This document shows positions 1 through 7,310 of a stretch of 23,256 nt of DNA, piece after piece. The notes below the pieces were generated by a model. The model worked only from the letters and a program-made list of their open reading frames with translations. It made no database searches and had not been told where the DNA came from. Source of the DNA: Deltaproteobacteria bacterium (GTDB taxonomy: Bacteria > Desulfobacterota > Syntrophia > Syntrophales > UBA8958); NCBI GenBank assembly GCA_029553375.1, contig JAKPCH010000020.1, forward strand, positions 1 through 23,256, in the 5' to 3' direction. Made by a program: the position numbers and the translations under genes. The first letter of the stretch is position 1. Each line of letters starts with the position of its first letter.

Positions 1-73
1 ACGCCCCCCGGAGCTACGGCGCCCAGGACTTCCGGGCCCTCGCCCGCGAAATCGCCGCCGGGGTCAGGTCTTG
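1..73 (+). CDS. 3' end of an unidentified protein-coding gene (partial, runs off the window start)
   Basis: The frame beginning at nt 3 is open with strongly GC-biased third codon positions (…AREIAAGVRS). It ends at TGA 71-73. Too short to assign a family. Confidence 0.3.
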
Positions 74-169
74 AAAATTAGCGTTTCATCGGCTGGCGAC
101 GGGGGGCGCTGAGACCCCTTCGACCCGGCGACGCCGGGCCGGAGGGGCAATATGAGGCAACCCCGAGGG

Positions 170-540
170 TCTTCTCGGCCCCGCCTCCGGGGGCGGGGAG
201 GAAAAATTCGCGGGGAAAATTTTTTGTCGATCGTCGATTTCTCAATGATTTCAGGTAGTCTACCTACGTCGGCGCGCCGACATACCCCCGCGTTCGGCCG
301 GTTTTGATCTAATAGAGCACACATAATAACCTGATAATATTGGCCGAAATTCGGCCCAAAAACGGCCGTTTTCGGGCCGTTTTCCGAGGCGGGAAATTTT
401 TTGGGCCAAAAAGGCCCGTTTTTTCCCCCTGGAAGGGCAAAACGGGCCAAAACGGAACGTTTTTCCCAAAACGCCCCCCGGCGGGGGGAAACCGGTCCAA
501 AAAGATCGTTTTCCCGGGCAGGCACCCCGGGCCCGGCGGC
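170..540. repeat. Structured non-coding region: cluster of short GC-core palindromes separated by helically phased A/T tracts
   Basis: Seen directly: hairpin CCCCGCC-tccggg-GGCGGGG (179-198); perfect palindrome GTCGGCGCGCCGAC (268-281); GGCCGAA-a-TTCGGCC (342-356); AAAACGGCCGTTTT (359-372); GGGCCAAAAAGGCCC (403-417); further imperfect A-run/GC-core/T-run units to about 515. A4-6 or T4-6 runs are centred near 360, 370, 381, 399, 410, 421, 440, 450, 462, 470, 490, 501 and 511, i.e. spaced about 10-11 bp or twice that. The overlapping + ORF 340..687 is low-complexity and not credible. Confidence 0.5.
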
Positions 541-596
541 GGGGCTTCTTTTGGTCTTCATTGTCTTTTGACGGAGAAGCTGCTACAGCGTCGGAC

Positions 597-875
597 ATGG
601 AGAGCCGAGGGAAAGAAAAGGGCAACGGCGTGGGCCGGCGGCCCGGCGACGGCCGGGTGCCCGCGTCCCTCGCGGCGTTTTGCCTGATCCTGGGGGGTAT
701 GGCCCTCGACCCCGTCATGAGGCTGTTCCTCTTCGCCGTCTCCGCCGCCCTCTCCTTGGCGGCCTTCATCAGGTCCACAGGCGGCCTCAGGGCCGTGGCG
801 GCCCTCATCCTCCTCCTCTCGGCCTTACCCGCCGCCAAGGAGCACTTCGAGGCCTACCGGGGCAGGCGGCCGTAA
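597..875 (+). CDS. Small (92 aa) membrane protein with two predicted hydrophobic helices
   Basis: ATG at 597 in an open frame with high GC3. Two hydrophobic stretches (LAAFCLILGGMAL, LFLFAVSAALSLAAFI and AVAALILLLSALPAA). Ends at TAA 873-875, 25 bp before the next gene, so probably co-transcribed. No family recognised. Confidence 0.45.
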   Translation: MESRGKEKGNGVGRRPGDGRVPASLAAFCLILGGMALDPVMRLFLFAVSAALSLAAFIRSTGGLRAVAALILLLSALPAAKEHFEAYRGRRP

Positions 876-900: not shown

Positions 901-2082
901 ATGTCAAACCATCCCTCCCTATACCGGACCGCCGTCCTCTTCCTTTGCCTGGCGGCGGCCCTCTTTGCGGCGCCGGCCCGGGGCCAGGGGGCCCAAGAGG
1001 CGCCGACGACGGCCAAGGTGCGGGTCCTCATCCTCCCCCTTTCCGGGACCCCGCCGCGCGTGGGCTGGGCCAAGCCCCACGGGATCTTCCGGCGCGACAC
1101 CATCGCCGCCGTCTCCCGCATCCTCCTCGACCAGGGGTTCTTCGAGGTGGTGCCCGACGAGGAGGTCGTCGCGGCGGGGGGCGGGGAAGACATACCCCCG
1201 TGGAGGTGGCTCCAAGATGACCTGGACCTGGTGAAGCGGGTCGGCCGGGCCGTCCGGGCCGACTTCGCCGTCGTCAACACCAGGGAGTTCATCCAGGGGC
1301 ACAACTACCGGTCCCAGGTGATCTGCCTCAACCTCTGGACGGGGAAGAAATTCACCGACTCCTACATGATCGCCCCCTCCACCTCACCGGAGGCCTTCGG
1401 GGAGGAGAACCGGAAGGCCTTCCGGCGGTATTACCGGAAGCTGTTCCAGGAGGCGAAGGCGGACCTCCTGAAGATCAGCCTCCGCAAGGCCGAGTCCCTG
1501 GCGGCGGCCAAACCGGGGCTTCAGGCGGAGCGGGCGGCGGTAGCGAGGGAGGACCTGCTGGGGGAGACGAAACTGCCAGGGGGTCTGCCGGAGGACGCGT
1601 TTCTGGAGGCGGAGCCGCAGCCCCGCCCCGCGAGGAAGGGCGCGGGGGAGATCGCGCCCCTCCGCAAAGGGGCCCGGGCGGGGAAAACGAGGATCGTGGT
1701 CTACGATTTCGCCTCCCCGGAAAACCTGAGCGTCCCCTCCCTGATCCTCACGGAGGCCCTCAGGGAAGAACTCCTCAAGCGGGGCGACTTCGTCCTCGTC
1801 AACAGGGAGGACCTGGGAAGGCTGGCGGGGGAGATGAAGGTCCAGCAGTCGGGGATGATCGACGAAAAGCAGGCCGTGCGCCTCGGGAAGGGCCTCGCGG
1901 CCGCCGAGGCCGTCACGGGCAGGCTCCACACCCTGGGCAACACCTACATCCTCCAGGCGAAGAGGACGGACATCGAGACGATGGGGACCCTCTCCATCGG
2001 TTCCCTTAAGTGTCCCGTCGGCCGGGAGGAGGAACTCCTCGCCCAGATGCCCCTCCTGGCGAAGAAACTGGCGGGGGACTAG
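901..2082 (+). CDS. Secreted/periplasmic protein with a C-terminal CsgG / LpoB-like (TolB-N-like) domain
   Basis: RBS AGGAAAGG then ATG 901. N-terminal signal peptide (LFLCLAAALFAAPARG-QG). The C-terminal region RIVVYDFASPENLSVPSLILTEALREELLKRGDFVLVNREDLGRLAGEMKVQQSGMIDEKQAVRLGKGLAAAEAVTGRLHTLGNTYILQAKRTDIETMG matches the pattern conserved in CsgG and LpoB N-domains (…AVLPF.N..G………L.EL…….F.VVER..L..VL.EQ.LQ.SG.VD…AV.IGK.LGA.Y.VTG.V…G…………TG). Confidence 0.65.
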   Translation: MSNHPSLYRTAVLFLCLAAALFAAPARGQGAQEAPTTAKVRVLILPLSGTPPRVGWAKPHGIFRRDTIAAVSRILLDQGFFEVVPDEEVVAAGGGEDIPPWRWLQDDLDLVKRVGRAVRADFAVVNTREFIQGHNYRSQVICLNLWTGKKFTDSYMIAPSTSPEAFGEENRKAFRRYYRKLFQEAKADLLKISLRKAESLAAAKPGLQAERAAVAREDLLGETKLPGGLPEDAFLEAEPQPRPARKGAGEIAPLRKGARAGKTRIVVYDFASPENLSVPSLILTEALREELLKRGDFVLVNREDLGRLAGEMKVQQSGMIDEKQAVRLGKGLAAAEAVTGRLHTLGNTYILQAKRTDIETMGTLSIGSLKCPVGREEELLAQMPLLAKKLAGD

Positions 2083-3462: not shown

Positions 3463-3710
3463 ATCCCCTTCTCCCAGGTTTTTCGTCATCCTAAAGGACA
3501 AAGGACAAATAGTCAACCGGCGCGACAGGGCCCCCCGCGTCGCCCCCGGCCCGGGCCCGGAGGGGGTCGGACCCCGGAAACGGGGGCAAAACGGACCTTG
3601 ACGCGGGGTGACGAGGCCCCTAAAATGAAGCGGCCGGGTCGGAGGAAAACAGGGGGCCATTGTTGTACCATTTCCCCTTTCCGGCAAAATTTCCTCGGAG
3701 GTGGCAAGAG

Positions 3711-4478
3711 ATGAAGAAGGTTTGCATCGTCGTGACGATGGTCCTGTTCATCGTGGCGGCCCGTGCCGGTATGGCCCAGGGGCAGGACGGTTGGGTCCAA
3801 TTCAAGGGTTTCAAGTACAGACTGACCACCGTGGAGGGGACCTGGTCGGAGGCCGAGGCCGAGGCCATCCGTCACGGCGGCCACCTGGCGACGATCAACT
3901 CCCGGGAGGAGAACGACTGGCTCGTCAGGACCTTCGGCAACGACAAGAGCTTCTGGATCGGCTTCTACCAGCCCGCCGGGTCCCAGGAACCGGCCGGGGG
4001 CTGGCGCTGGGTGAGCGGCGAGAGGGTGGTCTACACCAACTGGGACGGCGGTCAGCCCGACAACTACACGGGCCGGGACAACTACGCCATGCTCCTGAGC
4101 GGCGCCGGGGGCCGGTGGCACGACGTCCCCCTGGAGGGCTGGCCCATGACCTCCCGGTTCCGGGGGATCATCAAGGTCAAGGCCGAGCTCGAATGCGCCG
4201 TCTTCAGGGGAGTTGAGTACTGTCTCACCCCCTCCGAGGGCGACTGGAACCAGGCCGAGGCCGAGGCCATCCGTCACGGCGGCCACCTGGCGACGATCAA
4301 CTCCCGGGAGGAGAACGACTGGCTCATCAGGACCTTCGGCAACGACAAGAGCTTCTGGATCGGCTTCTACCAGCCCGCCGGGTCCCAGGAACCGGCCGGG
4401 GGCTGGCGCTGGGTGAGCGGCGAGACGGCGGTCAGCCCGACAACTACACGGGCCGGGACAACTACGCCATGCTTTTGA
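3711..4478 (+). CDS. Secreted tandem C-type-lectin-like domain (CTLD) protein; second domain truncated by a frameshift
   Basis: RBS GGAGGTGG then ATG 3711. Signal peptide MKKVCIVVTMVLFIVAARAGMA. Domain 1 (about 3790-4190) has the CTLD hallmarks WIGFYQ…WRWVSGE…YTNWDGGQPDN…YAML…GRWHDVP (QPD and W-H/N-D motifs) but no cysteines. Domain 2 (from about 4200) is a near-identical nucleotide duplicate. It lacks 22 bp (GGGTGGTCTACACCAACTGGGA) present in domain 1, so the frame shifts and terminates at TGA 4476-4478. Confidence 0.75.
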   Translation: MKKVCIVVTMVLFIVAARAGMAQGQDGWVQFKGFKYRLTTVEGTWSEAEAEAIRHGGHLATINSREENDWLVRTFGNDKSFWIGFYQPAGSQEPAGGWRWVSGERVVYTNWDGGQPDNYTGRDNYAMLLSGAGGRWHDVPLEGWPMTSRFRGIIKVKAELECAVFRGVEYCLTPSEGDWNQAEAEAIRHGGHLATINSREENDWLIRTFGNDKSFWIGFYQPAGSQEPAGGWRWVSGETAVSPTTTRAGTTTPCF

Positions 4479-4578
4479 GCGGCGCCGGGGGCCGGTGGCA
4501 TGACGTCCCCCTGGAGGGCTGGCCCATGACCTCCCGGTTCCGGGGGATCATGAAATTGAAATAGGGGGCGCGAGATGT
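4367..4578 (+). repeat. Direct repeat copy A (3' end of CTLD gene plus TAGGGGGCGCG junction)
   Basis: About 80-85% identical to 7414..7581. Both copies carry the same deletion junction GGCG(A/G)GACGGCGGTCAGCCCGAC. Both end …CCCATGACCTCCCG(G/T)TTCCGGGGG(A/G)TCATGAA(A/G)TT(G/C)AAATAGGGGGCGCG followed by an ATG. Confidence 0.7.
4426..4564 (+). pseudogene. Out-of-frame C-terminal remainder of the second CTLD repeat
   Basis: After the 22-bp deletion junction (about 4425/4426) the original CTLD reading frame continues intact (…GGQPDNYTGRDNYAMLLSGAGGRWHDVPLEGWPMTSRFRGIMKLK) to TAG 4562-4564. This frame differs from that of 3711..4478. Confidence 0.6.
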
Positions 4579-6131: not shown

Positions 6132-7310
6132 ATGGGTACCCAAAAATCCGTTACGGCTCTTCCTTCAGAGTTTTCACGGCCTCGACTCGTTCAGGGCAGG
6201 GGGGTTGCCCGGCGTATCGTCGAAAACGTTCTTGCGCGGGCCGGCGTGGGAATAAACGGTCCCAACCCCTGGGACATCCGGGTTCACGATGAACGGCTCT
6301 ACGCGCGCGTCCTGCGGGAGAAAAATCTCGGGCTCGGCGAGGCCTACATGGACGGCTGGTGGGACTGCCAGCGGATCGACGAGTTCATCTGCCGCGTTCT
6401 GCGCGCCGGGCTCGACGAGGCCATCAGGGGAAGCGCGGCCTATCTTCTGCGTTTTTTCCCTTCCCTGGTGCTCAATCTGCAGTCGAAATCCCGCGCCCAC
6501 ATCATCGCGCAGCGCCACTACGACCGCGACAACGACCTCTTCCTTTCGTTCCTCGACCCATACAACCAGTACAGTTGCGCCTACTTCCAGGAAACGGACG
6601 ACCTGGCAGAAGCCCAGCAGAAGAAGCTGGAACTTCTCTGCCGGAAACTCAACCTGCAGGCGGGGAACCGGGTCCTTGACATCGGCGGCGGCTGGGGCGG
6701 CCTCGCCCGCCACATGGCCGAGCGGCACGGCTGCACCGTCACCTCCGTAAACATCTCCGGGGAGCAGGTCCGCTATGCCAGGGATTTCTGCCGGGGCCTG
6801 CCCGTGACCGTCATCCAGGCGGATTACCGGCAGATCGGCGGCACCTTCGACAAGATCGTCTCCGTCGGGATGTTCGAGCACGTGGGCTGGAGGAACTACC
6901 GGATCTTCATGAACATCGTACACAGGTGCCTGAAACCGGAGGGCGTCTTTCTGCTCCAGACCATCGGCGGCAACGAGTCGCGGGTCAGCTGCGATCCCTG
7001 GATCACCCGGTACATCTTCCCCAACGGCATGCTGCCGAGCATCGCCCAGATCGGCCGGGCCGTGGAGGGGCTCTTCGTCGTGGAGGACTGGCACAACCTC
7101 GGGCCGCACTACGACCGGACGCTCATGGCCTGGTACGAGAACTTCCAGCGGGCCTGGGACCGCCTGAAGGAGCGCTACGACGACCGTTTCAAACGCATGT
7201 GGGATTATTACCTGCTGTCCTGCGCGGGGGCCTTCCGCGCGCGGAGCATCCAGCTCTGGCAGATCGTGCTGACGAAACCCGGCACCGTTCAGCCTGCCTG
7301 CAGGATATAG
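6132..7310 (+). CDS. cfa: Cyclopropane-fatty-acyl-phospholipid synthase (SAM-dependent methyltransferase, Cfa family)
   Basis: RBS GGAGGGGG then ATG 6132. Near-collinear identity to the E. coli Cfa pattern: GINGPNPWDIRV, LGLGEAYMDGWWDC, LNLQSKSRAHIIAQRHYDRDNDLF, LDPYNQYSCAYF, VLDIGGGWGGLA, IVSVGMFEHVG, DPWITRYIFPNGMLPS, DWHNLGPHYDRTLMAWYENF, RMWDYYLLSCAGAFRAR.IQLWQIV. Codon usage is less GC3-rich than neighbouring genes. Confidence 0.9.
   Translation: MGTQKSVTALPSEFSRPRLVQGRGVARRIVENVLARAGVGINGPNPWDIRVHDERLYARVLREKNLGLGEAYMDGWWDCQRIDEFICRVLRAGLDEAIRGSAAYLLRFFPSLVLNLQSKSRAHIIAQRHYDRDNDLFLSFLDPYNQYSCAYFQETDDLAEAQQKKLELLCRKLNLQAGNRVLDIGGGWGGLARHMAERHGCTVTSVNISGEQVRYARDFCRGLPVTVIQADYRQIGGTFDKIVSVGMFEHVGWRNYRIFMNIVHRCLKPEGVFLLQTIGGNESRVSCDPWITRYIFPNGMLPSIAQIGRAVEGLFVVEDWHNLGPHYDRTLMAWYENFQRAWDRLKERYDDRFKRMWDYYLLSCAGAFRARSIQLWQIVLTKPGTVQPACRI

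Follow-up and report, generated by a model that had tools for sequence, protein, structure and literature searches.

The 23,256-nucleotide (nt) stretch of DNA analyzed here (the window; positions 1 to 23,256 of contig JAKPCH010000020.1 in the Deltaproteobacteria bacterium assembly GCA_029553375.1) contains, upstream of a small operon coding for a membrane protein and a lipoprotein (597-2082), one copy of a dispersed repeat that we name X. This copy spans about 0.3 kb (approximately positions 196-512), and its right half is an array of A/T runs alternating with GC-rich palindromes. We found that X is a non-coding, orientation-specific dispersed repeat of related uncultured deltaproteobacterial genomes, so that the block is to be annotated as a mobile-element-derived repeat and not as a dedicated regulatory region of the lipoprotein operon. 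We propose that X is the relic of a non-autonomous element derived from IS21-family insertion sequences (ISs) and that the array is its built-in static bend, an interpretation to which we assign a probability of about one-half.

The dispersed nature of X is evident from the settings in which it occurs. A 22-mer from the block had a single match among 185,579 species-representative genomes, in a metagenome-assembled genome (MAG) labeled "Deltaproteobacteria bacterium" with 84% identity and unrelated flanks, and a 20-mer from the block had 24 matches in metagenome contigs. In total, 37 copies were recovered from 27 sequences and at least 10 different flank contexts, which include positions after acyl coenzyme A (acyl-CoA) dehydrogenase genes, upstream of proC, and beside DUF499/Vsr/HsdM-like accessory genes. 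No match was obtained with blastn of positions 150-600 against plasmid and phage collections or in scans of viral contigs with a core 20-mer and with the motif of the IS21-type end described below. The best hint as to the host is an IstB stub annotated "Syntrophales bacterium," which is 95% identical to the stub accompanying one subfamily of X (C type). A coding function for the block was considered and rejected. The two open reading frames (ORFs) crossing it, a minus-strand ORF with a conserved ATG and a plus-strand ORF of 115 amino acids (aa), have no called homologue among 5.8 billion proteins, and the third-codon-position GC content (GC3) of ORFs lying over X copies is 0.50-0.69 versus about 0.9 in neighboring genes. 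Further, an F-type copy shows ~65% protein identity by hand translation versus 77% DNA identity, with substitutions that lack a synonymous bias.

The history of the window copy can be read from a contig of a sister strain, L001 (ena:ERZ27257469:k141_25900), which was reached via the downstream 393-aa protein and is 99.5% identical to the window from position 195 onward. It holds two directly oriented copies of X, one at the contig end (1-313) and the other at 2224-2560, and between these copies lie 1.9 kb of foreign, low-GC DNA with an ORF for a HigB-like toxin, a gene for an ion channel, and an rve_3 fragment. The window joins the left flank of copy 1 to the right flank of copy 2, and the diagnostic positions within its own copy change from those of copy 1 to those of copy 2 at about 390-425. 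It thus appears that homologous recombination between two such direct copies gave rise to the window copy, and X apparently mediates a 2.2-kb presence/absence polymorphism between strains. Six loci have two X copies each, 1.8-2.5 kb apart. Locus L013 (5068-11246) has four copies, between which lie a peroxiredoxin gene and a DUF3124 lipoprotein gene in duplicate; it also has one inverted copy of the IS21-type end (6733-6803), with a DUF499 gene upstream, and it looks like a small cassette array that arose through repeated rounds of insertion and recombination. One assembly has three long contigs at 62-69x coverage, each with a different subfamily of X, and a single genome therefore probably carries several diverged copies. 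Contigs L001 (at position 1), L002, L012, L016, L024, L025, and L028 end inside X or within ~200 bp of it. X may thus break short-read assemblies, and its copy number per genome is probably underestimated.

The connection to IS21 rests on the C- and D-type copies, in which the array is followed at a fixed distance by ~70 bp ending in ...CGATCATTGACA, with the flanks diverging directly thereafter. When reversed, this end reads TGTCAATGATCG..., starting with TGTCA and comprising three ~23-bp units with TGATCGCCG. It aligns without gaps over 66 nt, from the terminal TGTCA onward, with the left end of an IS21-family element in Burkholderia pINT23 (~82% identity; z = 18), which is followed by the N terminus of the transposase IstA. 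On the other side of X, the C-type copies carry a 45-aa C-terminal stub of the AAA+ helper protein IstB (with PF01695-bearing matches) and repeats that resemble the IS21-type right end in L029 (z = 11.5). The order in the element's own orientation is thus left end, array, AT-rich stretch, core, istB stub, and right-end repeats, and by its sequence the C-type unit is clearly an IS21 derivative that contains X and has undergone an internal deletion. In addition, the core opens with TGTCGATCGYCG, which resembles an IS21 terminus in the opposite orientation (p ~0.0015 versus shuffles), and its TCAATGAT is identical to nt 3-10 of the IS21-type terminus. Neither istA nor an intact istB is present in the window or beside any X copy, the 45-aa stub of the C type being the only remnant of either, and X is therefore at most a non-autonomous IS21 derivative. 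All 46 clusters retrieved in a protein search with this stub were short ORFs (38-78 aa) from diverse sources, including Syntrophales, Asgard-archaeal MAGs, and low-GC contigs. C-terminal IstB stubs with ...HHSTTINIKGNSYRLKEKVKAGL seem to be widespread, and the fetched contexts of these matches belonged to other organisms and were without X. Some of the stubs end a conserved AAA_25-helicase gene set (L029 4001-4265; L031; L032).

Three other assignments were tried and set aside. The array as a bent target of IstB was rejected for the C and D types, in which the terminus is oriented such that the array is internal to the end. A Tn7-like end was rejected on the ground that the multirepeat end is of the IS21 type. 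An integron attC site was likewise discarded: GTTAGGC occurs at one boundary, but inspection of the sequence revealed neither an inverse core site nor an attC-like structure, and no integrase was seen in the listed ORFs.

The second line of evidence concerns the physical properties of the array. The five perfect or near-perfect palindromes described in an earlier, sequence-only reading of this DNA are all present where they had been placed (Table 1), and a repeat search added a ~19-nt near-palindrome, GGCCAAAAA-N4-5-CGTTTT, with four copies at 354, 404, 445, and 494 (spacings of 50, 41, and 49 bp). That reading also considered the A/T block unusual, and this proved to be so. Of the 90 A/T runs in the window that are 4 nt or longer, 17 fall in the segment 170-560, and 13 are in the 200-bp bin from 351 versus a maximum of 5 per bin outside 201-700. 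The AA/TT periodicity of 340-520 peaks at 10.0-10.2 bp with a power of 5.5, versus 0.11 in shuffles, and ranks first among 770 sliding 181-nt windows across the 23 kb, with the top eight windows all overlapping the array region. The proposed recurrence of the runs every 10-11 bp needs amendment: the phasing is real, but the period is nearer 10.0-10.2 bp, and the phase is coherent within each tract triplet, not across the block. The DNA path of the array may therefore be superhelical rather than planar.

The earlier reading had further held that the phased tracts cause static curvature and had called for curvature modeling, which we carried out with our own wedge-model script using both the Bolshoy/Trifonov model and an AA-wedge-only model. 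With the former, the end-to-end/contour ratio of 160-bp fragments starting at 300-420 is 0.79-0.81 versus a window mean of 0.961 (standard deviation, 0.030); with the latter, the array fragments give 0.58-0.74 versus 0.982. None of 300 shuffles was as curved as the array. Both models thus predict that the array is strongly bent, and the prediction extends to every subfamily of X: in all 16 copies tested, the ratio is 0.71-0.87 versus locus backgrounds of 0.94-0.97, and the AA/TT period is 9.6-10.2 bp in all subfamilies.

The pattern of conservation suggests that the shape of the array is maintained over its sequence. Array part 1, in which the runs are separated by GC-rich stretches and which includes GGCCGAAATTCGGCC and AAAACGGCCGTTTT, aligns across all canonical subfamilies with one 1-nt gap, and its A/T tracts fall in fixed columns in every subfamily despite ~23% divergence. 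In one subfamily, GGGAAATTTTTT is replaced by CCGAAAAAAAAT (A3T6 to A8T), whereby the tract is kept with its strands swapped. More generally, A-to-T and G-to-C exchanges in either direction account for 15 of the 37 biallelic columns of array part 1, and by a rough expectation such transversions, which preserve the weak or strong character of the pair, exceed the level of neutral drift. Array part 2 gains or loses ~50-nt units between copies. The array is an unusually clear natural case in which tract positions, a ~10-bp period, and a predicted bend are conserved while the sequence drifts.

The core is distinguished by a 52-nt stretch (241-292) with only two variable positions among the canonical subfamilies and by two adjacent hairpins or dyads. 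These show compensatory changes, namely three double-substituted pairs from two divergent lineages only, with 98.9-100% of cells paired and none of 500 shuffles reaching the score. In the two F-type copies (L012 and L013), GTAG-TCTAC-CTAC becomes ATAG-TTTAC-CTAT and GTCGGCGCGCCGAC becomes GCCGGAGCTCCGGC, with the symmetry of each retained; the change of the central CGCG to AGCT would fit a double-stranded dyad. The other lineage, the G type, was found via a covariance model of the core and includes L028 1850-1930, L018 5443-5522, L009 2734-2813, L013 4935-5015, and L023 3290-3342, all on the minus strand. These cores have no A/T array, and each is found either inverted relative to a canonical core that lies 200-280 bp away or immediately beyond an IS21-type end. 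Here GTCGGCGCGCCGAC becomes AUCGG-AACU-CCGAU, with a loop (AACT) that is not symmetric. The outer pair of hairpin 1 is changed from G:C to A:U in both the F and G subfamilies, and the G type keeps both stems with further G:C-to-A:U changes and with U.G wobbles that pair only on the plus strand, a pattern that would fit a hairpin in plus-strand RNA or single-stranded DNA. No consistent covariation was found for a long closing stem around the core. At the left arm, our own reading of the alignments shows a GC-rich inverted repeat in each subfamily.

Taken as a relic of an IS21-derived element, X would have spread as a passenger or leader segment situated just inside the left terminal repeat of an IS21-family element, and the window copy, which has no recognizable intact end, would be immobile. 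The array would act at the level of DNA: its A/T tracts, which extend over ~170 bp with GC clamps between them and a phasing of ~10 bp, would form a static bend that pre-curves the DNA between the multirepeat transposase-binding end and the core. The core has two dyad/hairpin sites as well as a TGTC..GATCGCCG motif that resembles an end, and proteins bound there and at the end could be brought together without a host bending protein. The GC hairpin plus T-run unit or units might also terminate transcription through the element, and whatever influence X may have on the 597-2082 operon would be incidental to the landing site. This inferred placement of the bend has a parallel: the left end of phage Mu has an HU-bent spacer between its L1 and L2 sites, and IstA is organized like MuA and TnsB and synapses supercoiled ends (PMC10122671); recent structures show that IstB bends DNA along a ~10.5-bp helical period (PMC11208146). 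Should the bend or an RNA of this module take part in the transposition of IS21-type elements, a well-studied transposon family would gain a component that acts in cis. The combination of a conserved structured core and a ~170-bp phased array inside an IS21-type end is unusual; a limited literature search found no description of it, and it has no Rfam match.

Several observations weigh against this interpretation. IS21 elements have ends made of several terminal repeats and, in the case of IS5376, generate 5-bp target duplications (PMC10122671), but no matching 5-nt flanks surround L013 6733-7575, the only unit with two inverted ends, although recombination between copies could have erased such duplications. 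The searches did not yield an istA-bearing autonomous partner, and the transposase-binding end is less well conserved than the core. An intact IS21 end is also generally missing from subfamilies A, B, and E, to which the window copy belongs, yet their core and array are ~90% identical or better to the nearest copies. This would be odd for a sequence serving transposition alone and suggests that X either has a role not tied to the end or undergoes gene conversion among its copies. The compensatory changes in the core hairpins and the wobbles confined to the plus strand favor a role at the level of RNA, as does a plus-strand fold of 340-520 that is better than that of shuffles (z = -2.97). Finally, the bend is a prediction from wedge models.

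These RNA-like features can be brought together in the main rival explanation, a more tentative one that we regard as possible: X may be a small portable transcription unit with a structured plus-strand RNA. A promoter at 304-332 (TTGATC-17-TAxxxT) or further upstream would drive an RNA made up of the array hairpins, perhaps together with those of the core, and ending at GGGCC-AAAAA-GGCCC-U6 (402-424). Read-through would enter the downstream gene, and the ~10-bp period would be a by-product of stacked A-run/GC-stem/U-run hairpins. Consistent with this, the 17-nt hexamer spacing and the key -10 positions (T1, A2, and T6 of the second hexamer) are kept in most subfamilies, and the GGGCC-AAAAA-GGCCC segment with its T6 run, which gives a terminator-like match at 402-418, is conserved in all of them. 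The fold of 340-520, the double substitutions at three core-hairpin pairs, the G-type U.G wobbles, which would be C.A mismatches on the other strand, and one pair covarying between C:G and U:A in the array stem AAAACGG/CCGUUUU point the same way. Further, in about 10 of 13 cases in the ORF listing, by our own count, X and the gene on its right point in the same direction, and X persists in copies that have lost the IS end. Yet the window's own hexamers at 304-332 do not pass a sigma-70 consensus scan, and the core, which is conserved best of all, lies upstream of where the promoter is proposed. No Rfam family was found in the whole window at the gathering threshold, and a search of 100-620 at E values up to 10 gave terminator-like noise only. 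The covariation comes from only two lineages, and two of the substitutions are better accommodated by duplex DNA: the F-type change of CGCG to AGCT keeps symmetry where a hairpin cannot pair, and the change of A3T6 to A8T keeps the duplex tract but turns the U-run of an RNA into an A-run. A more specific version of this idea, in which X is the gene for an undescribed structured RNA of IS21-type elements or a free-standing, host-kept mobile regulatory RNA, strikes us as unlikely. Such an RNA would be transcribed toward and across the transposon end, a position like that of the IS110 bridge RNA and the IS200/IS605 omega RNA, and its hairpins, along with the TCAAUGAU segment, whose complement is found in the transposon terminus, would take part in transposition or regulate it.

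The remaining explanations have less in their favor. A REP/RAYT-like or other single-stranded DNA hairpin element, in which an HUH-type enzyme would read the folded GC palindrome flanked by GTAG/CTAC and the IS21 link would be secondary, is in our estimate quite improbable. CTAC does abut a perfect 14-nt GC palindrome with GTAG upstream, the core hairpins are kept by compensatory changes, and the divergent inverse cores 200-280 bp from the canonical core are somewhat like REPIN doublets. Against this, the conserved unit is ~300 nt rather than 20-40 nt, the copy number per genome is apparently low (one locus among the 185,579 species representatives), and the array-side end is clearly of the IS21 type; moreover, no RAYT or IS200/IS605-type transposase was noticed in the ORFs within ~4 kb, where no domain search was aimed at one. 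The function offered by the sequence-only reading, that of an architectural region, an array of dimeric-regulator sites, or an upstream activating region specific to the 597-2082 operon, we judge to be very improbable. The array does share the orientation of the operon, which begins 85 bp farther downstream; it is predicted to be strongly bent, and all sampled strains with this operon carry a copy at this place. This proposal nonetheless does not survive the comparison with other copies, as the block turned out to be what the reading itself had named as its refutation, a dispersed repeat, here of 37 copies, that has no positional link to the operon and recurs among at least 10 unrelated flank contexts, and a consensus scan found no promoter-like site between the array and 597. 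An array of dimeric operators is also unlikely because GGCCGAAATTCGGCC and AAAACGGCCGTTTT do not keep their palindromic symmetry in other subfamilies; it is GTCGGCGCGCCGAC, in the core, that is conserved by compensatory changes. Scarcely credible, in our view, is a parS/parC-type centromere-like site for the upstream ParA-like ATPase. The ParA-family gene ends at 73 and four near-palindromes recur at 41-50-bp spacing, but no ParA gene lies beside X in the other flank contexts examined, and no ParB-like or ParR gene was seen near the ParA-like gene here.

When set beside known systems, X works like a MITE-type (miniature inverted-repeat transposable element) or IS-derived intergenic repeat with architectural and regulatory pieces. 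It shares with the IS21 family the C- and D-type end, which is of the multirepeat 5'-TG...CA-3' kind, with its TGTCA start and three ~23-bp units, as well as the IstB stub and right-end-like repeats opposite. Unlike that family, it has ~0.3 kb of conserved non-coding DNA in place of istA and an intact istB, lacks detectable 5-bp target duplications of the kind known from IS21 (PMC10122671), and in the window has no recognizable intact end; we did not file it as IS21 because istA and istB are missing. The Correia elements of Neisseria are MITE-like, non-coding, intergenic, multicopy repeats with promoter- and terminator-like pieces and a bend-associated segment that can alter the expression of neighboring genes. 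X has the same non-coding, intergenic, and multicopy character, promoter- and terminator-like pieces, and a bend segment, but it is larger (0.3 kb, or 0.64-0.84 kb with ends), has a clear inverted terminal pair only at L013 6733-7575, and its bend is intrinsic, arising from phased A/T tracts rather than from an IHF binding site. The likeness to Mu-type transposons, in which a bend lies between terminal transposase sites and a more internal site, is by analogy only, and the bend of X differs in being sequence-encoded, ~170 bp long, and predicted. Like classic intrinsically curved DNA, the array has at least 12 A/T tracts of 4-6 nt with a ~10-bp period and a strong predicted bend; unlike it, the array mixes A- and T-tracts with GC palindromes between them. 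With REP/BIME sequences X shares dispersed GC-rich palindromes in intergenic DNA and GTAG/CTAC beside a hairpin, but it is ~10 times longer and has a highly conserved non-palindromic core, a low copy number, and IS21-type ends. Its unit is too long for it to be filed with them, and its copies are too few.

Table 1. Coordinates of X and of the adjoining genes in the window; identities are means between subfamilies of X
Feature	Position	Strand	Remarks
3' end of ParA/Soj-like P-loop ATPase gene	1-73	+	Context
Left GC hairpin	153-198		46% identity
Left arm, with GC-rich hairpin CCCCGCC-TCCGG-GGCGGGG at 179-198	170-198	+	
Palindrome CCCCGCC-TCCGG-GGCGGGG	179-198		Named in the sequence-only reading, found in place
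A-rich linker, conservation segment	199-225		81% identity
A-rich linker AGGAAAAATTCGCGGGGAAAATTTTT	199-224	+	
Highly conserved core	225-320	+	Starts with TGTCGATCGTCG (225-236, IS21-terminus-like); contains TCAATGAT (242-249)
Core, conservation segment	226-320		89% identity
Hairpin/dyad 1, GTAG-TCTAC-CTAC	255-267	+	97.5% of cells paired
Hairpin/dyad 2, GTCGGCGCGCCGAC	268-281	+	100% of cells paired; double changes at two pairs
Palindrome GTCGGCGCGCCGAC	268-281		Named in the sequence-only reading, found in place
Promoter-like stretch TTGATC-17 nt-TAACCT	304-332	+	TATACT or TATGCT in other subfamilies
AT-rich promoter-like stretch, conservation segment	321-341		69% identity
Array part 1	342-432	+	A/T runs 347-351, 358-362, 369-372, 380-383, 395-402, 408-412, 419-424; 77% identity
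Palindrome GGCCGAAATTCGGCC	342-356		Named in the sequence-only reading, found in place
Palindrome AAAACGGCCGTTTT	359-372		Named in the sequence-only reading, found in place
Palindrome GGGCCAAAAAGGCCC	403-417		Named in the sequence-only reading, found in place
Array part 2	433-512	+	GGCCAAAA-N-CGTTTT copies at 445, 494; CCCCCCGGCGGGGGG hairpin; 41% identity; 91% to closest C-type copies
Possible decayed remnant of IS21-type terminal repeat	513-560	+	Global alignment to C-type end, z = 2.1, weak
Beyond array	513-577		15% identity
92-aa membrane protein gene	597-875	+	Gene call in L001; Pfam
393-aa CsgG/LpoB-like lipoprotein gene	901-2082	+	Gene call in L001; Pfam

The ParA-like gene that ends at the left edge of the window is seen in full in L010 (1356-2135; Pfam AAA_31, E = 1e-52; CbiA/ParA). 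It is an orphan there and is preceded by a 450-aa protein with a faint double-zinc-ribbon match (L010 2-2135). Directly after this gene, and outside X, is an inverted repeat (115-147) with 16-nt arms of 88% complementarity (CCCCTTCGACCCGGCG/CGCCGGGCCGGAGGGG), which may be the terminator of the ParA-like gene, though it lacks a T-run. A scan of the window for tRNA and tmRNA genes found none. Further downstream, 15272-17243 and 19909-23076 contain long ORFs that had no Pfam match on the strands tested, among them a 1,055-aa minus-strand ORF overlapping long plus-strand ORFs. A C-type-lectin gene (3660-4560) has internal ~320-bp repeat units at 3850-4171 and 4252-4551 that are arranged differently in L001 (5739-6614), and comparison of the two sequences suggests variation between strains in domain copy number or arrangement.

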